From a virus, in the IMG/VR virus record IMGVR_UViG_3300031963_000020, positions 84,341-148,340 of that record: DNA of 64,000 nt. One strand, written 5' to 3'. Positions 6,320 through 25,447 of this stretch are shown here, piece after piece (within the stretch, counting starts at the first letter, position 1; each line of letters begins with the position of its first letter). A model generated the notes under the pieces. It was given only the letters and a program-made list of their open reading frames with translations, ran no database searches and was not told the DNA's origin. Both the position numbers and the translations under genes were made by a program.

Positions 6320-9300
6320 TGCCAATTATAGCAGGTCAGATTACAGGTTCAGCACTTAGTGGTTCGTTAAATTATACGTTCCTATCTAATATTCCTTCTG
6401 GAATAGTATCTGGAGCTGCCCAAGTAGCCGCAAATCTACCAGCAGGGACAGTATCAAGTTCTGGTCAAGTAGATTATAACTCAATAACAAATAAACTGTC
6501 TGGTGTTGTTTCTTCGTCAACGCAAATTCAACCATTATTACCTGATGGAACAGTTAGTGCATCAAATCAAGTAGATATTACAGCAACTACCAACTACTCG
6601 ACATTTAGTTCATCGTTGGCAACAGTTGATGCAGGTCAAACCACTCGTATTGATAATCTAGCAAGTTTGACCAGTTCGTATGCAATTAACGCAACTATTC
6701 AAGGCCAACTTGCTGGAGTTGCATCAAGCAGTGCACAAGTAAAAGCATACTTACCAGCAGACACAGTATCAAGTTCTGGTCAAGTAGATATTACCGCAAC
6801 TAGTGGTTATTCAACCTTTAGTTCATCAATTGCAACCAAAAACGATACACAAGACGTATCTATCGGTGCATTAAATGCAGCAACCAGTTCATACGCAATT
6901 AACGCAACTATTCAAGGACAACTTGCTGGTGTTGTTTCTTCTTCTACACAAGTTAAACCATTACTTCCTGGTGGAACTGTATCAAGTTCCGCACAATATC
7001 CTGGTTGGGTCACTGCGTCATCACAAATTGATGTACGTAATACTACAGGTATTGCAACAATTGCAACTACAGGATCAAACACATTTAATGGTACTCAAAC
7101 CGTTACAGGTAGTTTATTTACTAGTGGGTCAAATAGTTTAGTAGGAAGCACTACGTTATCTGGTAGTTTAGTTGTCTCTGGTGCAGCAATTACCTCGACT
7201 CCAAATATTCAAATTTACGGAGATACAGAATTTACTGGATATGCAAAGTTTAACCCAGTCACCAGTAATATTGATACCTCAATTTCCGCATCCTACATTT
7301 ATGTTAGTGGGTCAACCCAAGATTTATATTTCTCTCAAAATAGTGCTGGATATAATAACGTTACTCGTTTACGTTGGTTAGAAAGTAACCTCTACACGGG
7401 TCTATTAAAGGGTGGAATACTAACAACAACAACAGGATCTACCACGTTTAATATCAGTGCAGGTGAAGGTATTGTTGTAACTCTTAACGCATCAACAACC
7501 CAAGACCCATATCCAACAATTAAGTTGGTTCGATGGGACGCAAAAACCAACGTTCCTATTACGTTTTCGGGTTCAGCAAAGATTACCTACGTTGGATTAG
7601 ATGTTGCAGGTAATGTTATACAACAAGTTGTTCCTTGGGGTAGTACCGACATCAATCAATTTGATACCCAAATCAATTTAGGTGTTATTTTACATTCAAG
7701 TGCATCAATATCAACAGGAGCATATAACGCTCCACAAATTTCATATGGAGCTCCGCAAAAGGCGGACGACTTCTTTAGATCATTTGGTCCACTAAAAGTT
7801 TCTGGTCACACCTTACAAGCAAGTGGTAGTAGCCCATCACTTAGTATTAAAAAGACCGCTGGTACATCATATCGTGAAGGGTCAAATTATGCAAATAATC
7901 CAAACCATCCCAACACGGTCACAGAAGAAAGTGATATTACAATATCTAAGATATATCGTTATTATATCTCAGGATCAACTCCTGTTATTGATACGGGTGC
8001 TAGTGGATCAGGATATCCCACTCTCGATAACCAAAACCGCGTTGATACAGCAACGGGGTTATTAACATCAATTGGTTTAAGTAATTGGTCTATTCAACGC
8101 GTATTCTGGGTTCCAGGGTCACCAACCAACGCGTTTATTGTCTATTATGGTAACACCGCATACAGCACACTACTCAATGCAGTTAACGCAATTAATACGG
8201 AACCATTCACGGAAGCACCAGATACGGCAGCTAATGCTGTATTCATCGGATACATCGTAATTCAAGGTGGTAGTAATCGTGACTTACTAAACGCGACGGA
8301 TTGTACTATTATTCAAGCTGGATTGTTCCGTAACATTGCTGGTGTTGGATCGGGTGGAACACAACCAGTAGCAACCACGTTAGCAGGATTATCTGATGTC
8401 GGTATTAGTAGTCCAGCTATTGGTGACTTGTTGGTATATACTGGGGCAACGTGGAATAATACAAAGTCATTAAATGGTAGTTATTCACTTACTGGTAGTT
8501 TAGCAACAAATGATGGTATTACGGCAATAACAATTAATGCAACAGCAGTATCCGCATCACTTTCTGGTAGCGGTGCTGGAGTATTTGGCGTCAACTATAA
8601 TACCTTATCAAATATTCCAGCAGGTATCGTCAGTAGTTCAACACAAGTTCAACCACTACTTCCTGGAGGAACAGTAAGTAGCTCAGCACAATATCCAGGA
8701 TGGGTCACGAGTTCAGCACAAATTGATATTACCGCAACAACTGGATATTCTACCTTTAGTTCATCACTAGCCACCGTAGATGCTGGCCAAACCACTCGCA
8801 TCGATAACTTGGCAAGTCAAACAAGTTCCTACGCAATCAACTCAACAATACAATCGCAACTTGCTGGTGTAGTATCAAGTTCCACACAAGTTAAACCACT
8901 TCTTCCTGATGGAACTGTTTCCTCATCAGCACAATACCCAGGATGGGTCACTGCATCATCACAAATAGATTATAATAATATTACTAACAAGTTAAGTGGT
9001 GTTGTAAGTAGTTCTGCACAAGTAGTACCATTACTTCCTGGTGGGACAGTATCAAGTTCTGGTCAAGTTAGTTTAACTGCCACCTCAGAATACTCTACAT
9101 TTAGTTCATCAATTGCAACTAAAAATGATTTGCAAGATGTTTCTATCAACGCACTGAACGCAGCAACTGGTTCATATGCAATTAACGCAACAATACAAGG
9201 ACAACTTGCTGGTGTCGTATCATCGTCGGCTCAAGTTAAACCATTACTTCCTGGTGGAACGGTATCATCATCTGGACAAGTAGACATCACAGCAACAACC

Positions 9301-14315: not shown

Positions 14316-15170
14316 ATGGGTCTTAATGAACAAATTCTCGCTGGGGCAGCAGCACTAAAGCGTGAAAATATAATAATTCCAATAGAAACAGCAAGTGTTC
14401 AGTATACAGGGTCAATTGAAATGGGCCGTGTATTTGCTATTACTGCTGTGCAAGGTTCCAAAATCTGCCGTATAAGATTATATATGGATTCTGGTAGTCG
14501 TAATGACGGCACGGAATTAGCAAGACCATTTATTTCGCAAAGTATCCCATCGGCAATTAGTTTAATAACAGATATTAGTTTAGATAACGAATCGTTATTT
14601 CGTTTGGCTCCTCCTGTCTTTGGGGTGAACCTTGACAATCCTATTAAGAGTAGTATATATTACACTATTGATTCCAGTTCTGGAGCAAATCTAGATGCTG
14701 GAGATAAAATAACACTTACTAGATTTTTGATGGAAGATCCTGCGGTAAGTAATTTAGTAGGAGTAGATACACACAAGACATTAATTATTAGTGCATCGGG
14801 ATTAGCATCTGGTAGTCACAGAACTGGTAGTATTAGTTCACCACGAACATATCTAGCATACGCAGTGGAACCAACAGTTGCACCTATTAGATTACGACTA
14901 TACACTAGTCAAAGTTATAGAGACGATGTTGGTGAAATTTCTAGGTCATTTACAACAGAACCATCACAGAGTAACGGACTTATCGCTGACTTTTATATGG
15001 AAGATGTTGCAAAGACACCAATGACACCTATACTCATTGGTAGAAATGATGCAGATTTATTAAATCCAGCATTATTGTCGGCAGACCAAATAACATATTA
15101 CACAATTACAAATGGATCTGGCACAGGAACTATATCTGGGTCAGTTTATATATTTTCACTAGAAGATTGA
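14316..15170 (+). CDS. Hypothetical virion protein with internal two-fold repeat
   Basis: RIRLYMDSGSRND..E.ARPF and RLRLYTSQSYRDD..E.SRSF; GAGG SD upstream. Confidence 0.55.
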   Translation: MGLNEQILAGAAALKRENIIIPIETASVQYTGSIEMGRVFAITAVQGSKICRIRLYMDSGSRNDGTELARPFISQSIPSAISLITDISLDNESLFRLAPPVFGVNLDNPIKSSIYYTIDSSSGANLDAGDKITLTRFLMEDPAVSNLVGVDTHKTLIISASGLASGSHRTGSISSPRTYLAYAVEPTVAPIRLRLYTSQSYRDDVGEISRSFTTEPSQSNGLIADFYMEDVAKTPMTPILIGRNDADLLNPALLSADQITYYTITNGSGTGTISGSVYIFSLED

Positions 15171-15177
15171 GGTTATT

Positions 15178-15843
15178 ATGAGTGTACAAATGTTTCGTGA
15201 GTTACAAGAACTAATCGATACGGCACAACACATAGTTATTGCTGTTATTGTGGCCGAAGGGTGTGAAAATTACAAGGGTAAATTCTTGACTGATTTGGAA
15301 AATCAAATCAAGGGTCAACAGAACCCAGTACATTTACACACCATTTGTTATCGTGAAGAACCAATTATGTTTCCACGCCCAATGACACAAGCGGTGTATT
15401 ATTTCGCACCAAAAAATTATACACCACTTTTTTATCGTCAAGGTGCAAGAGCGATGGACGCACCAATAGATATTGTAACGGCCATCAAAATGAGGCAGGG
15501 GATGTCCTATGCAGAGGCTGCATACGGTGCGGATAAGATGGAAAGTTACGAACGAACAGAAAATTTGGTAAAGAACGAAGATACATCAAAGTTTCCTTCA
15601 TTGTTTCAACAAGCACGTAATTTTGCAAAAGAAATGTGGCACGCAGGTAAAAATGCAGCAGTTGGATTACCTGTATTAGTAGATGCGGATATTGCATACA
15701 ATAGATTTGAAACGTGTCGTGGTTGTGAATTTTTAACACAAGATAGTTTTCGTTGTGAAAAATGTGGGTGTTTTATGAAAACAAAAACACAAATTGCAAC
15801 TTCTTCATGTCCAATTGGAAAATGGCACGCTATAACGCAGTAA
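15178..15843 (+). CDS. Protein with C-terminal Cys-rich domain (DUF6171-like) and possible degenerate thioredoxin-like N-terminus
   Basis: R...CRGC...CEKCGCFMKTKT.....CPIGKW. Confidence 0.55.
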   Translation: MSVQMFRELQELIDTAQHIVIAVIVAEGCENYKGKFLTDLENQIKGQQNPVHLHTICYREEPIMFPRPMTQAVYYFAPKNYTPLFYRQGARAMDAPIDIVTAIKMRQGMSYAEAAYGADKMESYERTENLVKNEDTSKFPSLFQQARNFAKEMWHAGKNAAVGLPVLVDADIAYNRFETCRGCEFLTQDSFRCEKCGCFMKTKTQIATSSCPIGKWHAITQ

Positions 15844-15870
15844 AAACAAAGTAGACAACTTGTTGGTGAA

Positions 15871-15878
15871 TATTTATA
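15871..15878 (+). promoter_or_regulatory. Putative late promoter core TATTTATA
   Basis: Intergenic, 10 nt before the ATG at 15889. Confidence 0.4.
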
Positions 15879-15888
15879 TTAGAATACT

Positions 15889-16620
15889 ATGTTAAGATTT
15901 TTTCCGTATAGAACATTTAGTTCGTCATTTGCATTCACGGGGTCCGCAGCACAAACTGCATCATTCGTGCTGTCTGGAACCACCGCATCGTTTTCACTAA
16001 CTGGTGGTGGTCCAACTGGTCCTGTTGGGCAAACGTCGGTAGTACAAGGTATTACAGGTGTATCAGGACCAACAGGTATAGGTCCAACAGGTCCACGTGG
16101 CACCACAGGTCCAACAGGCCCAAGATCAGCAACAGGTCCAACAGGACCAACTGGTATTACAGGACCAACTGGCGCTACAGGAGCAACTGGAGCTGCATCA
16201 ACTGGTCCAACAGGACCAATAGGAGTTTCAGGTAGTACAGGTCCAACAGGACCAACAGGTGCAACAGGTATTATCGGTATCACAGGTGCAACTGGTCCGA
16301 CAGGAGCAACAGGTCCAAGTGGTCCAACAGGTATTCAAGGTATTGCAGGGCCGCAAGGTGTTACTGGTGCTACGGGTCCAACTGGTGCAATTGGTGTCGC
16401 AGTATCAGGTATCCAAGGTCCAACAGGTGTAACAGGGCCGTCAGGTCCATTTGGTTCTTCTGGTCCACAAGGTACAATTGGTGTTACAGGTCCAACAGGA
16501 CCAACAGGTGCACAAGGAACCGCATTTACAGGGCCAACAGGTGCAACAGGTGCAACTGGTGCTACGGGTCCAACAGGAGCTGTGGGAGCTACTGGTCCAA
16601 CTGGTGCGAACACACCATAA
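15889..16620 (+). CDS. Collagen-like protein with N-terminal FFP motif
   Basis: MLRFFPY..SSSFA..TASF leader, then about 200 aa of G-X-Y to the C-terminus. Confidence 0.8.
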
Positions 16621-16635
16621 TAGAGAGAAAGTGTT

Positions 16636-18279
16636 ATGACGTTTAAATTTTTTCCGTTCGGTGTACCAACTACTAGTTCGTTTGCAATAGGAGTCGGAGT
16701 AACAGCTACCGCATCTATTGCAATTAATAGTGGTTCTGCGTTCTCTACGGCGTCATACGCACTGGGTGGGTCCACGGGTGCCACAGGTCCAAGTGGTCCG
16801 CAAGGAGCAACAGGTCCAACAGGTCCAACGGGTCCAACAGGCATTTCTGGATCAACTGGTGTTTTGGGTACTTCTGGTTCAACAGGACCACAAACGTCAG
16901 GGTCAACAGGTCCGACTGGACCAAGTGGTATTACTGGAGCAACAGGTCCAACAGGACCAACTGGTATTACGGGTTCTACGGGTGTAATAGGTATTACAGG
17001 ACCATCTGGTATTCGTGGTGCAACAGGTGCAACTGGAGCAACAGGTCCAACAGGCCCAACAGGTAGTGTTGGTATAACTGCTGGTATCATAGGTGTATCA
17101 GGTGTTACAGGCCCAACTGGTTCATCTGGTCCAACTGGTGTACAAGGAAGCACGGGTCCAACTGGTGTGGGGCCAACTGGAGCAACAGGTGCAACGGGTC
17201 CATCTGGTTCAGCAGGACCAACAGGACCAGTGGGACCAACAGGAGCAACTGGTGCAATCGGACCATCTGGATCTTCTGGTCCAAATACATTCGGAATAGT
17301 TGGTATAACTGGAGCAACTGGTCCTACTGGTGTTATCGGACCAACGGGACCACAAGGAAACGCTGGTCGAGCTGTATTTTTCATAACAGGATCATGTAAT
17401 CAAACACATTCCGATATCACCGTTCCTCACAGTGACGTTGCAGCAAGTCATACTGATATCGCAGCAGCACACACAGATACTACCATTAATGCATCACATA
17501 GTGACATTGTTACCACAACACCAGCATCACATACAGATAATACTACACCATTCGTAAATACGACTATTAACGCATCACATAGTGACACAACAATTAATGC
17601 ATCACATAGTGATATTGCGCATAGTAATATTACAATTAACGCCGCACATACTGATAATACCACACCATTTAATAATATCGCATTTACTAATATTGCAAAA
17701 TCACATACGGATATTTCACACAGCAATATATCACATACGAATATCGGAGCAGCACATACAGATAATACTACACCATTTAATAATATCGCGTTTAGTAATA
17801 TTGCATTCACAAATACCACTATACCATTTAGTAACATAGGATTTAGTAATTCGTATACTCCACATTCAAACATTGCTAAAGGTGCAGTTCATAAAGACGA
17901 TTACGGTCCACCAGCACATACAAATAGTACAACACCACATAGTAATATTGCATTCTCAAACACAGGATTCTCTAACTCGTATACTCCACATACAAACGTG
18001 GGTCATACGGATATTGCGTTCTCTAATACAGGATTTAGTAATAGTTATACTCCACATACTAATATTGGTTCAGCTCACACCAACACTACAATCAACGCAT
18101 CACACACAGATAATTACACGGCACATCAAAACGTAGCGCATGGAGATATACCGTTCGTGAATAGTTATACACCGGCACAATGTTCGCAATGTCCTGGTGG
18201 AGATCCGTCTGAATGTGATTCGTTCTGTGAATGTTATCCAAACTGTGGTTGCTTCGGTAATACGTGCATCGGTATATAA
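16636..18279 (+). CDS. Collagen + 38 x [HF]-x-[DN] repeat + 8-Cys tip protein (zipper chain C)
   Basis: MTFKFFPFG leader; G-X-Y to about aa 244; repeat array aa 258-509; C-terminus CSQC...CDSFCEC..NCGC....C. Confidence 0.85.
17407..18162 (+). repeat. [HF]-x-[DN] motif array (38 motifs, spacings 5/7/9/11 aa)
   Basis: Hand-parsed from translation ([21 protein letters not shown] ... HGDIP FVN). Confidence 0.9.
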
Positions 18280-18305
18280 TAAATGTTTATAATAGGGAAT
18301 AAATA

Positions 18306-19082
18306 ATGCCAGGTCCAACACATACAAATATAGGCCACTCCGATATAGCGTTTGAGAATGTCTACGCTGCGCATACTGATTTTACACAAAATCCGGCACA
18401 CACTGACAATACCACACCATTTAATAATATTGCAGCAGCTCATACCAATATCGCTCATAGTAATCAGGCATTTCTTAATACTTCATTTAGTAATATAGCA
18501 AAATCACACACCAATGTATCACATACAAATATTGGGCATACAGACGGTACGGCAGCACATACAGACAACTATTCACCAGCATCGCATTTAGATAATACTA
18601 GTGCACACTCAAATATCGCAGCAGCTCATACAAATATTGCACATAGTAATATAGCAACATCACACACAGATATATCTCACTCAAATATATCTCATACTAA
18701 CATCGGTGCATCACACACTGACAATACCACACCATTTAACAATATTGCGTTTAGTAATATTGGGTTCGTAAACACCACTATTCCACATACTAATATTGGT
18801 CACACTAATATAGGTGCAGCGCATTCAGATAATACAACACCAGCAGATCACAGCGATATCGCATTTAGTAATATTACGATTAACGCAAGTCACACGGATA
18901 TTACAATCAACGCAAGTCACACGGATATTGCAGCATCACATACCGATACTACCATTAACGCATCACACACGAATATAGTAAGTACCACTCCAGCTTCACA
19001 TACCGACAGTACAACACCATTTACAAATAGTACTACACCACACTCAAATGTTGCGGCCGCTCACAGTAACGCATTCCTATAA
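18306..19082 (+). CDS. Pure [HF]-x-[DN] repeat protein, 38 motifs (zipper chain D, mirror partner of 16636)
   Basis: Almost entirely HTN/HTD/HSN/FSN units; AGGGA SD-like element upstream. Confidence 0.85.
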   Translation: MPGPTHTNIGHSDIAFENVYAAHTDFTQNPAHTDNTTPFNNIAAAHTNIAHSNQAFLNTSFSNIAKSHTNVSHTNIGHTDGTAAHTDNYSPASHLDNTSAHSNIAAAHTNIAHSNIATSHTDISHSNISHTNIGASHTDNTTPFNNIAFSNIGFVNTTIPHTNIGHTNIGAAHSDNTTPADHSDIAFSNITINASHTDITINASHTDIAASHTDTTINASHTNIVSTTPASHTDSTTPFTNSTTPHSNVAAAHSNAFL

Positions 19083-19088
19083 TACACT

Positions 19089-19952
19089 ATGTCGCAATTT
19101 TTTCCACTAGGTACACCAACAACTGCAAGTACAGCACTTATCAGTAGTTTAGCATTTACCGCAACGTATGCTGTGAATGTGAATGTGTTGACAGCATCAT
19201 ATGGTCCTGGACCAACTGGACCACAAGGTGATAAAGGACCAACAGGACCACAAGGTGCAACTGGATTGGCAGGGTCAGGTTCTACAGGACCAACGGGCGC
19301 AACAGGTCCAACTGGGCTAACTAGTTCAGGTCCAACAGGTCCAACAGGACCGCAAGGTGTAATCGGTATTACTGGTATTACAGGCCCAACAGGTGTCACA
19401 GGTTCTACAGGCCCAACAGGTCCAATAGGAATTACTGGTGTAATTGGTGTTACAGGTATTTCTGGTGTAACTGGTATTGCTTCATTTACTTCGGGTTCCA
19501 CAGGCGCTACTGGGCCAACTGGAGCAACAGGTGCTACTGGTGTGGTGGGTATTACTGGTGCAACTGGTATTATTGGAATCACAGGACCAACAGGATTGAC
19601 TAATTTGGTGGGCATTACAGGTCCAACAGGTCCAATAGGATTACCAACCACGGGTTCTACAGGTCCAAGTGGTCCACAAGGAGCAACTGGTGTTGTAGGT
19701 ACTGGTGGTGTTTCTGCAGGAGCGGCGGCATCTGGAGTCATCGGTATTACGGGTATTACTGGTGTACAAGGTACCACAGGACCGCAAGGAAGTCGTGGTG
19801 TGGACGCCGAATGTCCAGCAGGATTTGTAACCTGTACGGAAGGGGCTCCGTCATCGGGGTCAAATACATATACAAACCCAAATAGTAGTATATATTCTGT
19901 GGTTTGTGCCGCAAGACCAGTAGGTTGTTTAGGAACATTTACGTGTGTATAA
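19089..19952 (+). CDS. Collagen-like protein with FFP leader and 5-Cys C-terminal domain
   Basis: MSQFFPLG leader; G-X-Y to about aa 237; ECPAGFVTC...VVC....GC....TCV. Confidence 0.8.
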
Positions 19953-20024: not shown

Positions 20025-21218
20025 ATGGCTAAAGCACCTGGTAGTATTTGGGTAGATGGTGAAACCTTTAGATTTATTGACGCAACTGGAAACGAGTACT
20101 ATTACACTGGTACTGCGGGGTCTAGTCCTGCGGGAGCTAAGGCTGGTTCAATTTGGGTAGACGGAAATGATTTTCATTATATTTCTGCTACTGGTGTTGA
20201 CCGTACAATTGCATACACCGATTTGGGTGTAGCAGCGGGATCAAAACCAGGTTCAGTATGGGTGCAAACCACATTCTGGCAATGGATATCATCGGCAGGA
20301 AACGCTCGTCGTGGTCACACCGACGTAACAGCAGCACACACCGACAATACCACCCCAGCATCTCACACAGATATTGCATTCGTTAATACTACAATTAACG
20401 CGGCACACACAGATACTACAATCAACGCAAGCCATACAGATATAGCAAAAGCACACACGGATAACACAACACCAAATAGTCACACGGACAACACTACTCC
20501 GTTCAATAATATTGCGTTCGTTAATACTACAATCAATGCCGCTCACACGGATAATACAACGAACGCAAGCCATACAGATATAGCAAAAGCACACACGGAT
20601 AACACAACACCAAATAGTCATACTAACAGCTATACTCCACATAGTAATGTCGCACACACCAATATTGGTGCAGCGCACACGGACAACACTACTCCGTTTA
20701 ATAATATCGCATTCACTAACACCTATATTGGTAACAGTCACACCAACAGTTATACTCCACACAGTAATGTCGCACACACCAATATTGGTGCAGCGCACAC
20801 GGACAACACTACTCCGTTTAATAATATAGCATTTACCAATTCATATACAGGTAATAATCACACTAACAATTACACACCACACACCAATATCGGTCACAGT
20901 AATATCGGTCATACTAATATCGGATTTAGTAACATAGCATTTAGTAATATTGGATTTACCAATACAACTATCAATGCATCACACACAAATATCAGTCATA
21001 GTAATATTGGTGTATCGCATACAAATATCGGTCATAGTAATGTTGGATTTAGTAATTCGTATACTGGACACACAAACATTGCACATAGTAATATAGGCGT
21101 ATCGCATACAAATATTGGACATAGTAATGTTGGATTTAGTAATTCGTATACAGGATTTGTAAATTCTTACACACCACAAAATCACACAAATTCGTATCAG
21201 GGTGGTCCTTCAGCCTAA
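20025..21218 (+). CDS. Three GS[IV]WV repeats + 44 x [HF]-x-[DN] repeat protein (zipper chain A)
   Basis: N-terminal 97 aa with PGSIWVDG/AGSIWVDG/PGSVWVQ; array from aa 98 (nt 20316). Confidence 0.85.
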   Translation: MAKAPGSIWVDGETFRFIDATGNEYYYTGTAGSSPAGAKAGSIWVDGNDFHYISATGVDRTIAYTDLGVAAGSKPGSVWVQTTFWQWISSAGNARRGHTDVTAAHTDNTTPASHTDIAFVNTTINAAHTDTTINASHTDIAKAHTDNTTPNSHTDNTTPFNNIAFVNTTINAAHTDNTTNASHTDIAKAHTDNTTPNSHTNSYTPHSNVAHTNIGAAHTDNTTPFNNIAFTNTYIGNSHTNSYTPHSNVAHTNIGAAHTDNTTPFNNIAFTNSYTGNNHTNNYTPHTNIGHSNIGHTNIGFSNIAFSNIGFTNTTINASHTNISHSNIGVSHTNIGHSNVGFSNSYTGHTNIAHSNIGVSHTNIGHSNVGFSNSYTGFVNSYTPQNHTNSYQGGPSA

Positions 21219-21238
21219 TGCATGAAAAGGAATAATAT

Positions 21239-22144
21239 ATGAATCATAGTAATTCGACAACACCAGCATCACATACGAACATCGGTGCATCACATACTAA
21301 TATCGGGTTTAGTAATGTGGGGTTTAGTAATAGTTATACTCCATTTTCAAATGTTGGGTTCGGTAATGTCAATGCATCACATACTGATATTGGATTTAGT
21401 AATGTGGGATTTGCAAATTCTTACACACCATTTAGTAATGTAGGGTTTTCCAATAGTTACACACCAAATTCACACACTAATATTGCACACAGCAATATTG
21501 GTCATAGTAATATTGGATTTAATAATATTGCGTTTAGTAATATCGCATTTGGTAATATTGCAAGAACACATACCGATAACACTACAAATGCAAGTCATAC
21601 CAACATTGGTCATACAAATATTGGTGCTGCACACACGAATAACACCACACCATTTAATAATATAGCGTTTAGTAATATTGCGAAGGCACACACAGATAAC
21701 ACTACAAATGCAAGTCATACCAATATCGCGCATACAAATATTGGTGCTGCACATACGGATAACACCACACCATTTAATAATATAGCGTTTAGTAATATTG
21801 CGAAGGCACATACGGACAATACTACAATTGCCTCACACACGGACAATTACACTCCGCATACAAACACTACAATTAATGCGGCACATACCGACAATACAAC
21901 ACCAGCATCACATACGGATATCGCACATACTAATATTGCTGCAGCACATACGGACAATACTACTAACGCAGCCCATACGGACAATTACACCCCGCATACA
22001 AACACTACAATTAATGCCGCACACACGGATACCACAATCAACGCAAGTCATACCGACATTGCGCACACTAATACAACAATTAATGCTGCACACACGGATA
22101 ACACCACACCACATAGCGACCAACCAGTATTTGTTGGTCCATAA
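21239..22144 (+). CDS. Pure [HF]-x-[DN] repeat protein, 44 motifs (zipper chain B, mirror partner of 20025)
   Basis: AAGGA SD at 21227-21231; ends HSDQPVFVGP. Confidence 0.85.
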   Translation: MNHSNSTTPASHTNIGASHTNIGFSNVGFSNSYTPFSNVGFGNVNASHTDIGFSNVGFANSYTPFSNVGFSNSYTPNSHTNIAHSNIGHSNIGFNNIAFSNIAFGNIARTHTDNTTNASHTNIGHTNIGAAHTNNTTPFNNIAFSNIAKAHTDNTTNASHTNIAHTNIGAAHTDNTTPFNNIAFSNIAKAHTDNTTIASHTDNYTPHTNTTINAAHTDNTTPASHTDIAHTNIAAAHTDNTTNAAHTDNYTPHTNTTINAAHTDTTINASHTDIAHTNTTINAAHTDNTTPHSDQPVFVGP

Positions 22145-22209: not shown

Positions 22210-23529
22210 ATGACTATTGAATTAGAACCAGTTGGTGTAGTATGTAATTTAAGTTGCCCGTATTGTTACGAACATCCCATGCGAGATGCGGGTAATTTCC
22301 GACATAAAACATATTCCGTTGAAAAAATGTTAGAAGGTCTTGCCAAAGAAGGTGGTAATTTTACCCTCTTTGGTGGTGAACCATTATTAACTGATATTGA
22401 CGATTTAGAAACTATTTTTAAGTGGGGGTTTGACCGATATGGATTTAATGGTATTCAAACAAATGGTGTTTTAATTACTGACCGCCACATAGAAATGTTT
22501 AAGAAGTACAGAGTTCACGTCGGAATATCACTTGATGGTCCTGACGAAATGAACGACACGCGTTGGGCAGGGTCATTAGAAAAGACCAGAGAGGCTACCC
22601 GCAAGTCATTTGAAGCTATTAAAAAGTGTCTTGACAACAAGCTCTCACTTGGTTTAATTATTACTATCCATAAGAAGAACGGATTACCAAAATATCGTGA
22701 ACGTTTCAAGGCATGGATTAAAGAACTTCAGTCGTGGGGTGTTGATGGAGCAAGACTTCATCCACTAGAGATTGACCATAGTTCTGTTGGTGAAACATTA
22801 GCTCTTACACCAGAACAAAATATTGAGTTCCTATTAGATATGTGGGACTTTGAAATCAGTGAACTAAATGTTCCTGGTAAGAAATCATTTCAGTTTGATA
22901 TCTTCCGTGACGTAGAATATATGTTGCGTGCAGACGATGCAAACGCAACCTGTACATTTATGACTTGTGACCCATATACCACGCATGCGGTGCAAGGTAT
23001 TGACTCGCAAGGTAATAAAGCAAACTGCGGTCGTGGTAACAAAGAAGGTATTAACTGGATTAAAGCCGATGTTGACGGATTTGAACGTCAGATGGCACTA
23101 TATAATACACCACAAGAACATGGTGGATGTCAGGGGTGCCGATTCTTTATTATGTGTAAGTCACACTGCCCAGGTACAGGTGCAGATATGGACTGGAGAA
23201 ATAGAACGGATACCTGTATGAATTGGAAGGTAGCGTTTAGTATCTATGAACGAATGATGGTTGAACGTGGTGAGATGCCATTATCTCTAGACCCAAAATT
23301 AAAGAGATATGAAGATATTTTGATGTATGGTTATAGTAGAGGTGCAGAACTTAGATTAGAACACATTAAAAAGTATCTTGACCCAAATATTGGATTTGAT
23401 ATTGAAAGATACATCCAATCATATTTGATGAACCAAGCTATGGGTGGACACAAGCCACACGCAGACCATACAGATGAAACAGGAAGATACGCATTAGAGT
23501 TTAAAGAGAAGTACGGATATTTACCTTAA
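22210..23529 (+). CDS. Radical SAM enzyme with SPASM-type C-terminal domain (peptide/protein maturase-like)
   Basis: CNLSCPYC (CxxxCxxC), FGGEPLL, QTNG, GISLDGP; C-terminal CTFMTC...NC...CQGCRFFIMCKSHCP...C; tail HADHTD. Confidence 0.92.
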   Translation: MTIELEPVGVVCNLSCPYCYEHPMRDAGNFRHKTYSVEKMLEGLAKEGGNFTLFGGEPLLTDIDDLETIFKWGFDRYGFNGIQTNGVLITDRHIEMFKKYRVHVGISLDGPDEMNDTRWAGSLEKTREATRKSFEAIKKCLDNKLSLGLIITIHKKNGLPKYRERFKAWIKELQSWGVDGARLHPLEIDHSSVGETLALTPEQNIEFLLDMWDFEISELNVPGKKSFQFDIFRDVEYMLRADDANATCTFMTCDPYTTHAVQGIDSQGNKANCGRGNKEGINWIKADVDGFERQMALYNTPQEHGGCQGCRFFIMCKSHCPGTGADMDWRNRTDTCMNWKVAFSIYERMMVERGEMPLSLDPKLKRYEDILMYGYSRGAELRLEHIKKYLDPNIGFDIERYIQSYLMNQAMGGHKPHADHTDETGRYALEFKEKYGYLP

Positions 23530-23547
23530 TATAAAGAGGATACGTAG

Positions 23548-23946
23548 ATGATACCAGGATTACACGCAGACCACGTTGACACATCGGGTGCATATGGTCA
23601 AAAATTTGAAGTCGTAAAAGACTTGTTAGAAAAAGGAATGTTGAAAGAAATTCCAGAAGAATTCCGTGATAAAGGAAATACTTCCGAAGAAGTTCCGGTT
23701 ATTACTAATTCACAAACAGTTGTTGGTAATCAGCAATCGGGATGGGATATGTCTCGTGACCATGCCGACCACGTTGACGAAACTGGTCGTTATGCACAAT
23801 CGTATATGGAACGATTTGGTTCGGATTCCTTAAATAATAACGAAATTTCACAAGGAACTACAGAACAACAGCAAGATACTGGTAATTCTTGGAAGTCTTT
23901 CTTGAAGAAGATTATTGCAGAAGAAAAGAGTAAGTTGAAGGTTTAA
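23548..23946 (+). CDS. Small protein with two HADHVD motifs
   Basis: HADHVDTSGAYG and HADHVDETGRYA match the tail of the upstream radical SAM; GAGGA SD. Confidence 0.7.
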   Translation: MIPGLHADHVDTSGAYGQKFEVVKDLLEKGMLKEIPEEFRDKGNTSEEVPVITNSQTVVGNQQSGWDMSRDHADHVDETGRYAQSYMERFGSDSLNNNEISQGTTEQQQDTGNSWKSFLKKIIAEEKSKLKV

Positions 23947-23965: not shown

Positions 23966-25447
23966 ATGCAAAGAATAAAGCATGTCTTGCCTGATTGGAC
24001 TCGGGTGCAGTGGACTTCTATAGAAAATAGAAACAAATACGAACCTATCATTGCGTCTATCAATAACGCATGGAAACAGATTGAACGTATGTCGGTTGTT
24101 CACGATATTCGTCCATCTTCACTAGATATATTATCACCAGAAGAACTCATAAATTTAACTGCGGAATACGAAAAACATGGAGTACTCGTAGTTCCTATTG
24201 GTAAAGAAGGAAAAGCAGGAACTTACTCGTCTACAAGTACACCATATAATGGTGGTGATTACAATATTCGTGTTGTATTCACAAAGTCTGAAGCTATAGC
24301 AGATGAATGGTTTAATATCTGGCAAGCAGAACCCCGCATTCGTGACCGTGAGGCTGGTCGTTTACTTGGGTATCCTACCTGCTGCACCAATCATTTTATG
24401 AAGTATTGGGTAGACCAGGAATTTGTTGATACTACGTGGACGATGGCAGCGGAAAATATGCAGTTAAATGATGACGATGAAACGCATCGTACTATTCATA
24501 TTAAGGCAGATACTCCACCTGAAGCAAACATAATGTGGCGTTGGCAAGGTGTACGATTGGTATCACATCTTCCGTGTTCGTTTGATTGCAAGGCAACAGA
24601 AGAACTTGGTATGAAGATGGCAGAACTTGGTCGTACACTTGGGTTTGAAAAAGAAGTAAATTGGATATATGAATTACTTTCGTGGCCTGTTGAATGGTCA
24701 GCACTGCATGGTATCGCAGAAATCCGTACACCAATCAACAAGATTTCATCCAGAACTGATATGACCCCGTGGAAGTATGTGGTACAGAAGCATGCACACG
24801 AATATCCTATTGATGGTATGTCTGGTATAACGTATCCGTATAATCAAAAGAAAATTAAAGTCAAACCCGTCACAAAAACTATCTCGTTCGCTAAATCTCT
24901 TGAAGATACTTCCGTATGGGAAGAAAACGGATTTAGTAATAAGGAAGCTATGGATCACTTCCACCAAGTTATCATTGACGCAATCGGGGATATGAAATAT
25001 ATTCCTGGTGGTAATGTCCTCGACCTCGGTTGTGGAAATGGTGTCTTGTTAGGTCGTGTAGTTGGAGACAGATTTGATCTCATCCCACACGGTGTTGAAG
25101 CAGACCGTCAACGTTGTATGTCCGCAGCAACTACCATCCATTGGGGTGTCTTTACAATGGGTAGCATCTTTGACCTTAATACGTGGAAGGAAGATACATA
25201 TAGTTTGGTACTTTTGATGCCAGGCAGACTTCTTGAAACCACACGTGTAGTATCAGAACAAGTGCGTAAGCAACTCTATGACAAGACAGACCTTGTTCTT
25301 ATCAACCTAACTTGTGATTGGACACAACAATATGGCTCGATTGAGAATATTATGAAGGTCACAGGTCTTGACCAAGAATGGGAACCAGCAGGTAAGTTAA
25401 TCCATCGTCAAGATGATATGGCACAACTTTTCAAGCGTAAGGTGTAA
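23966..25447 (+). CDS. DUF483-like domain fused to class I SAM-dependent methyltransferase
   Basis: GRLLGYPTCCTNHF and HLPCSFDC in the N-terminal part; VLDLGCGNG motif I in the C-terminal part. Confidence 0.65.
   Translation: MQRIKHVLPDWTRVQWTSIENRNKYEPIIASINNAWKQIERMSVVHDIRPSSLDILSPEELINLTAEYEKHGVLVVPIGKEGKAGTYSSTSTPYNGGDYNIRVVFTKSEAIADEWFNIWQAEPRIRDREAGRLLGYPTCCTNHFMKYWVDQEFVDTTWTMAAENMQLNDDDETHRTIHIKADTPPEANIMWRWQGVRLVSHLPCSFDCKATEELGMKMAELGRTLGFEKEVNWIYELLSWPVEWSALHGIAEIRTPINKISSRTDMTPWKYVVQKHAHEYPIDGMSGITYPYNQKKIKVKPVTKTISFAKSLEDTSVWEENGFSNKEAMDHFHQVIIDAIGDMKYIPGGNVLDLGCGNGVLLGRVVGDRFDLIPHGVEADRQRCMSAATTIHWGVFTMGSIFDLNTWKEDTYSLVLLMPGRLLETTRVVSEQVRKQLYDKTDLVLINLTCDWTQQYGSIENIMKVTGLDQEWEPAGKLIHRQDDMAQLFKRKV

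Follow-up and report, generated by a model that had tools for sequence, protein, structure and literature searches.

Introduction

The coiled-coil arms of SMC and Rad50, heteromeric collagens and intermediate filaments pair along their length, and insertions in one partner are matched in the other. In the gp37 needle of T4 (PDB 2XGF), domain D10 is formed by residues 811-881 and 1010-1026, and seven iron ions are held by axial histidines (PMC6957217). Among the radical SAM synthases of three-residue cyclophanes (triceptides), HtkB joins His-C2 and Lys-C-beta of an HTK motif by a cross-link, and Phe can take the place of His at position 1 (PMC11499958). The paper on the 'rSAM module' of Thermus phage Cumys/phiMa proposes a function in DNA modification and leaves the repeat protein of that module undiscussed (bioRxiv 10.1101/2024.08.14.607894). 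Here, these systems are compared with two adjacent genes, termed A and B, of IMG/VR virus record IMGVR_UViG_3300031963_000020. The stretch of DNA that was analysed, referred to as the window, comprises 64,000 nucleotides (nt; positions 84,341 to 148,340 of that record).

Both genes encode arrays of short motifs whose spacings read in opposite directions, and both contain tandem duplications of equal length at mirrored positions. We consider it probable, with a rough value of 0.78, that A and B form the two arms of a fold-back fibre and that the matched duplications are compensated pairs, which arose by slippage and were retained by selection on register.

The motif arrays of A and B mirror each other

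The two genes lie next to each other on the same strand, B being in another reading frame than A:

20025..21218, plus strand: gene A, 397 amino acids (aa), from open reading frame (ORF) and translation
21239..22144, plus strand: gene B, 301 aa, from ORF and translation

A ribosome-binding site (GGAG) is located upstream of the start of A, and B possesses its own (AAAGGA, 8-9 nt 5' of the ATG). Residues 1-97 of the A protein constitute an N-terminal domain of three GSxWV...Y/F.D..G repeats, which has homologues in 338 representative clusters. Residues 98-389 are an array of 44 triads consisting of His or Phe, any residue, and Asp or Asn, abbreviated (H/F)x(D/N). The B protein also contains 44 such triads and ends in HSDQPVFVGP; a C-terminal motif of this type is found family-wide. 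In both proteins the start-to-start spacing of the triads is only 5, 7 or 9 residues, and the Phe triads are always FxN.

The units of A have the lengths 7,9,5,[9,9,7,9,7,5],[9,9,7,9],{7,5,7,7,5,9}x2,7,5,5,5,5,5,9,(5,7,5,5,7)x2,9, and those of B are the exact reverse. The agreement greatly exceeds what chance would give: A and reversed B match at all 43 spacings, shuffled B spacings agree at 14.8 positions on average and at 27 at most, and a comparison of A and B in the same direction yields 9 of 43. The facing partner of spacing unit u of A is consequently unit 44-u of B. Only the unit lengths are mirrored; single blocks are oriented alike in A and B. No inverted DNA repeats were found between A and B, and an inverted duplication at the DNA level was rejected on this ground. 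An inversion can therefore not have made the mirror, and selection must maintain it. From this pattern, A would be the outgoing and B the returning arm of a fold-back fibre.

Three matched pairs of tandem duplications

Three tandem duplications occur in each gene, in the order 138, 120 and 87 nt along A and 87, 120 and 138 nt along B. They were delimited in units and with Tandem Repeats Finder (TRF):

20619..20858, plus strand: 120-nt duplication of A, units 14-19 (20619-20738) and 20-25 (20739-20858), lengths 7,5,7,7,5,9 twice
21569..21808, plus strand: 120-nt duplication of B, units 19-24 (21569-21688) and 25-30 (21689-21808), lengths 9,5,7,7,5,7 twice
20371..20620, plus strand: 138-nt duplication of A, 1.8 copies, units 9,9,7,9,7,5 followed by 9,9,7,9, TRF 91% matches
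21793..22073, plus strand: mirrored 138-nt duplication of B, TRF 80% matches
20981..21155, plus strand: 87-nt duplication of A near the tip, units 5,7,5,5,7 twice, TRF 88% matches
21286..21447, plus strand: mirrored 87-nt duplication of B near the tip, TRF 80% matches

A first-pass annotation of the window, made from the sequence alone, had described a 120-nt duplication in each gene (motifs 14-19 and 20-25 of A, 19-24 and 25-30 of B) and similar matched blocks of about 29 and 46 aa. The 120-nt duplications were recovered at these places by repeat finding, by TRF (A: 20616-20883, period 120, 2.2 copies, 87% matches; B: 21533-21831, period 120, 2.5 copies, 88% matches) and in offset-120 identity plots, which show uninterrupted identity over 65 nt in A and over 52 nt in B. 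The two copies in A (20613-20732 and 20733-20852) are 89% identical. The motif numbering is correct in triad units, and units 19-30 of B are the exact mirror of units 14-25 of A. The further blocks are the 87-nt (29 aa) and 138-nt (46 aa) pairs.

The same annotation had considered an unknown mechanism that coordinates length changes in both genes. One mechanism of this kind would be a single event that copies a change from one gene to the other, for example by ectopic gene conversion of a self-complementary block or by template switching. The duplicated blocks of A and B do have a directly homologous core, whose rung pattern is self-complementary when paired antiparallel. Within this 57-nt core, the copies are 98% identical in A and 96% in B, but A and B agree in only 81% of the nucleotides while encoding identical amino acids. 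The two 120-nt duplications are therefore separate in-gene events, and recent copying of the block from A to B was rejected. The flanks of the blocks are complementary and not copied, the best match between A and B DNA anywhere comprises 51 of 60 nt, and no inverted repeats exist. Blocks that occur as direct copies in both partners are present in one relative (L007) and in the window's other mirror pair, both described below. Furthermore, copy identities of A and mirrored B duplications are correlated (27 tandem duplications from seven lineages, Spearman 0.57, p = 0.002, a figure inflated by shared ancestry), which fits a one-step origin as well as compensation by two events. Copy divergence is nevertheless unequal in two of the three pairs of the window, and we regard a one-step mechanism as very improbable.

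The first-pass annotation had also pointed to the synonymous divergence of the matched duplicates. When synonymous differences are considered alone, the partners of matched pairs are indistinguishable; the inequality appears in the total copy differences. For the 120-nt pair, the unit-aligned copies differ at 14 of 120 positions in A (3 aa differences) and at 8 of 120 in B (p = 0.26).

The mirror is conserved in relatives with split arms

Relatives were fetched by means of the adjacent radical S-adenosylmethionine (SAM) gene and the N-terminal domain of A, which yielded 22 viral-contig loci and 15 metagenome loci. A second viral-contig scan re-found only contigs that were already known, a word-indexed homologue search with the A N-terminal domain returned one protein, and a DNA search of the A-B region against isolated phages gave no match. 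Including the window, 11 lineages contain split A/B pairs, each with a distinct spacing pattern. The spans of the two arms are as follows:

window: A 289 aa, B 289 aa
L003: A 316 aa, B 316 aa
L004: A 295 aa, B 295 aa
L005: A 266 aa, B 267 aa
L007: A 244 aa, B 244 aa
L025: A 290 aa, B 290 aa
L026: A 289 aa, B 289 aa
L027: A 311 aa, B 311 aa
L029: A 279 aa, B 279 aa
L031: A 293 aa, B 293 aa
L032: A 302 aa, B 302 aa

The spans range from 244 to 316 aa; they are equal in 10 lineages and 1 aa apart in L005. In all 11 lineages, the spacing of A is the reverse of that of B, apart from small local exceptions. A minimum spanning tree over the 11 patterns contains at least 70 blocks of change, each with its mirror counterpart in the other gene; even the window and L025, which are closest to each other, are two such blocks apart. 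The 120-nt duplication is present in both genes of the window, L025 and L032, and in neither gene of L026, L029, L004 and L003. L003 instead contains a repeated (7,5,9) unit in A, with its mirror in B. A (7,5)x3 expansion is particular to L032, where the copies in A agree in 97% and those in B in 94% of their nucleotides. None of the 11 lineages was found to have a multi-unit indel confined to one gene, and no unmatched indel of more than 2 aa was seen. The comparison of paired and unpaired indels in relatives thus bears out what the first-pass annotation had deduced from the window, namely that any expansion of one gene requires an equal expansion of its partner and that selection on register is strong.

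Alternatively, matched pairs could mostly have been imported, if a double crossover in the conserved proximal parts exchanged a distal cassette with its two arms at once; the duplications of the window would then have originated elsewhere and have been matched on arrival. The window and its relatives have the proximal pattern 7,9,5,9,9,7,9,7,5,9,9,7,9,7,5,7,7,5,9 in common and differ mainly distally. DNA identity drops and gaps cluster in the centre of the A-B region, and the start of A and the end of B are 82-100% identical. Given the central drop, recombination of distal cassettes can spread matched pairs. It cannot create them: an exchange only moves a pair, which still needs a two-event origin in some genome. 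The 138-nt pair, moreover, sits in the proximal part, and the matched expansion of L032 is recent and lineage-specific. A background divergence with about 80-86% identity extends everywhere, and clean recombination break points are missing. We therefore consider it unlikely that the pairs were mostly imported, and favour compensated changes that were made in place.

In L007, the last block of A (6849-6983) and the first block of B (7220-7354) are direct homologues with 80% aa and 76% nt identity, which is higher centrally. These blocks at the tip put two rungs out of register while the arm sums remain equal. They may have been left by the copying of a block across the tip.

Fused forms and complementarity of facing positions

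In some relatives, both arms are fused into one chain. These proteins of 199-869 aa carry the N-terminal domain of A and the C-terminal HxDQPV motif of B; the HSDQPVFVGP-type end is thus kept in single-chain relatives. Their arrays mirror about their own centre, in 102 of 102 triads of L009 (869 aa), 24 of 25 of L010 (288 aa), 16 of 17 of L018 (199 aa) and 38 of 57 of Thermus phage Cumys gp13 (at most 30 after shuffling). The split point between A and B corresponds to the mirror centre, and several A proteins have a Cys-rich knob exactly there. The mirror of the fused forms about their own centre argues that A and B are halves of a fold-back structure that is split at the turn.

The single chain of L009 (2680-5289) consists of (7,9)x16 outward and (9,7)x16 back. 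L010 (7076-7942) encodes its 288-aa chain. Fused and split forms coexist in related phages. In the split form of L012 (715-1936), a Cys-rich domain is located at the N-terminus of the returning chain. A Cys-rich knob at the end of A is accompanied by an additional, triad-free ORF of about 130 aa between the two genes in L027 (5369-5761), with similar gaps in L005 and L031; its product could be a tip chaperone or an adhesin partner.

The facing positions of the arms are complementary. In seven lineages, Phe faces Phe in 4 of 314 rungs, compared to about 36 expected, and the remaining rungs are Phe/His and His/His. Within the 7-residue units, a linker ending in Pro is opposite a Pro-free linker in 107 of 121 cases. 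It follows from both kinds of complementarity that an answering block is the complement of the original and not a copy. Duplicated blocks of 1, 2, 3, 5 and 6 rungs all occur, which indicates that register matters and a fixed helical phase does not.

It is conceivable that A and B have no contact and are both measured against a third, dyad-symmetric partner, or that they form an arch anchored at both ends. The genes upstream of A and B encode collagen-like tail-fibre proteins, which might serve as a scaffold, and the pairing of A with B is deduced from sequence statistics. An arch or a ruler would need neither the unit-by-unit equality nor the complementarity of Phe/His and Pro/non-Pro at the level of rungs. 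In addition, the single chains of 199-869 aa keep the mirror while the neighbouring genes are unchanged. These observations leave the no-contact alternative with very little probability, and we prefer two arms that pair directly.

A second mirror pair and the neighbouring genes

The window contains a second mirror pair at 16636-19082. Its 547-aa member comprises a collagen stalk, an array of 38 triads and, at the C-terminus, a Cys-rich knob; its 258-aa member has 38 triads in reverse spacing. The array begins directly after the collagen triple-helix domain, which suggests a trimeric shaft of six chains, three outgoing and three returning. Its one (9,11)/(11,9) swap is caused by a directly homologous block (17470 and 18939, 76% nt identity).

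The collagen-like genes are overlapped by two long antisense ORFs, 16335-17384 and 19061-19777 (both minus strand), which are rich in Pro, Val and Gly. GGN-NNN-NNN repeats are expected to yield such frames when read on the opposite strand, and the two ORFs probably do not represent genes.

A proposed compensatory origin of the matched duplications

According to the proposed mechanism, each arm would consist of 44 three-residue rungs, separated by linkers that make up units of 5, 7 or 9 residues. Rung i of A would lie opposite rung 45-i of B along the whole shaft, with complementary facing positions: Phe opposite His, and a Pro-ending linker opposite a Pro-free one. In such repetitive arrays, replication slippage or unequal recombination could often duplicate or delete one or several complete units at a time in either gene. 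If only one arm changed, a bulge of dozens of residues would form and everything beyond it would lose its register; such a change would survive only in combination with a complementary change of equal length at the mirrored place of the other arm. The duplications of 138, 120 and 87 nt and their mirror partners would be compensated pairs of this kind, a protein counterpart of the compensatory changes in RNA stems. As the arms are contiguous on the DNA at the tip, a single recombination step could then transfer a matched distal cassette from one phage to another. Two separate events and selection are enough to explain the matched duplications, and among 11 young duplications none has a partner below 70% identity.

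Several observations weigh against this interpretation. Total copy differences are unequal in the 138-nt pair (8 of 102 positions in A, 22 of 102 in B, p = 0.009) and in the 87-nt pair (10 of 87 in A, 25 of 87 in B, p = 0.008). The mirror has small defects: the arms of L005 differ by 1 aa at the tip, L007 has the local order (5,9,5,9,5,5) versus (5,5,9,5,9,5) with equal sums, and the pair at 16636-19082 contains the (9,11) versus (11,9) swap and one 9-versus-7 difference of 2 aa. In many distant members with dense HxD arrays, the mirror test was not significant and had no power. With relatives that are all about 15-20% diverged, the comparison would have missed any short-lived unmatched intermediates. 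Within one gene, the copies are 88-98% identical, compared to about 80-86% for orthologues between genomes; gene conversion consequently blurs their ages and the order of events is unreadable. Finally, structure prediction does not yield a fibre model. AlphaFold2 reached a predicted local distance difference test (pLDDT) value of 41 for L010 as a single sequence. For a single-chain homologue with an alignment of 24 sequences, pLDDT was >90 in the N-domain, about 81 in the last ten residues and <50 in the array. The ESM Atlas model has a pLDDT of 0.53 and no meaningful neighbours.

Dating of the duplications by copy divergence was rejected, as the greater similarity of copies within a gene than between orthologues makes homogenisation likely. 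An exception is L025, whose second copy in A (A2) is closer to A2 of the window than to its own first copy (A1). The age of the duplication thus equals or exceeds that of these lineages, and its copies have undergone partial homogenisation.

The AlphaFold2 model of the N-domain is confident and depicts its three GSxWV..Y.D..G repeats as beta-hairpin repeats, with no significant fold match in the PDB. The model also hints that the confidently predicted HxDxPxxVG C-terminal tail docks on the N-domain. A Foldseek search of the modelled part against the PDB gave no match at E <= 0.001, and a PDB sequence search gave none below E = 0.8. A pentapeptide-repeat beta-helix, which requires at least eight contiguous A(D/N)LXX pentapeptides, was rejected: the units vary irregularly between 5, 7 and 9 residues, no run of 5 exceeds six units, and the Pfam scores fall below threshold (Pentapeptide_2, 19.7 bits with a cut-off of 26.4; Pentapeptide_4, 18.7 bits with a cut-off of 38).

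The adjacent radical SAM module

Downstream of B, two further genes belong to a conserved module:

22210..23529, plus strand: radical SAM/SPASM enzyme (Pfam Radical_SAM, 1.4e-15; Fer4_12 match)
23966..25447, plus strand: DUF483 and methyltransferase-like protein, third conserved member of the module (Pfam DUF483, 5e-6)

The translation of the radical SAM enzyme shows a C-terminal CxxCx5CxxxC cysteine cluster. Its gene adjoins the fibre genes in all related loci and in Thermus phages. Among the NCBIfam families, the anaerobic sulfatase maturase is the top match, along with cyclophane-forming maturases, all below the curated cut-offs; YhhB, AmcB, GrrM/OscB, FxsB and XyeB score 38-65 bits, compared to cut-offs of 310-450. 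By these cut-offs, the enzyme lies outside the characterised cyclophane-synthase families. Because of the conserved adjacency and by analogy with the His/Phe motifs of triceptides, it is a candidate maturase of the triads.

Within 23443-23946 of the window, the end of the radical SAM protein reads HADHTDETGRYA, and the small ORF that follows (23548-23946, 132 aa) contains HADHVDTSGAYG and HADHVDETGRYA, both of which consist of HxD triads placed back to back, as in the fibre arrays. The enzyme of Thermus phage phiLo has an HxD-rich C-terminal tail (L001 9001-10449). Near its gene, on the minus strand of the locus (14807-18601), phiLo encodes the large HxD-rich proteins phiLo_136 (782 aa, 113 motifs) and phiLo_137 (474 aa, 81 motifs). 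A central WTNPHSDYHYD segment is common to phiLo_137 and Cumys gp13.

Comparison with known systems

If the arms pair rung for rung, the locus constitutes a natural record of compensatory indels between two proteins, which is very rarely so clean. It makes register keeping in fibrous heteromers, the tolerance of bulges and the tuning of fibre length testable, and the mirror code suggests a programmable code of protein pairing for design work. Literature searches returned no description of this fibre, and to our knowledge a two-gene mirror code kept through dozens of compensated indels has not been known previously. We tentatively propose, as a possibility that falls short of probable, an antiparallel register-coded ladder of a kind not seen before. 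In it, the unit lengths together with Phe/His and Pro/non-Pro would set a unique pairing, and the rungs would be stapled or rigidified by the radical SAM enzyme. Were this the case, fibre length would evolve by compensatory duplications and phages would possess an easily tunable reach; across relatives, the arms comprise about 8 to 51 rungs. There is a real chance that a structure would reveal a new kind of fibre.

In its working principle, the T4 gp37 needle appears to be the nearest analogue. It is a receptor-binding fibre in which the chain runs out to the tip and back. Here, too, outgoing and returning segments would form a shaft with regular His triads, which is probably trimeric and has its tip at the turn. 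The triads, however, are H/F-x-D/N, and no HxH series was found in A and B. The shaft has 33-51 rungs, which are spaced by a code of unit lengths (5, 7 and 9 residues); outgoing and returning arm are frequently encoded as separate polypeptides, and a radical SAM/SPASM enzyme is always adjacent. Similarity in sequence or fold to a solved structure, gp37 and gp12 included, was not found.

With the triceptide systems of HtkB and HaaB, the locus has in common that repeated aromatic-x-x motifs occur beside a radical SAM/SPASM enzyme, and the acceptance of His and Phe by HtkB matches the interchange of His and Phe in the H/F-T/S-D/N triads. In contrast, the candidate substrates are not short leader-core peptides but fibre proteins of the virion, which are 300-870 aa long and contain as many as about 100 motifs, and triceptide biology predicts no mirror code between two chains.

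The module of Cumys/phiMa is homologous. Its three genes have the same order and encode an HxD-repeat protein with the same N-domain, a radical SAM enzyme (45% identical) and a DUF483 protein. In Cumys, unlike in the window, one chain forms the whole fibre and the spacings are 3-6 residues; the module directly follows the baseplate and tail-collar genes. On our reading, a module that had tentatively been assigned to DNA modification would comprise a fibre and its likely maturase.

SMC/Rad50 arms, heteromeric collagens and intermediate filaments have an alpha-helical or Gly-X-Y periodicity, and collagens and filaments keep a parallel register. In A and B, unlike in these proteins, an irregular code of unit lengths is read in opposite directions by two genes.

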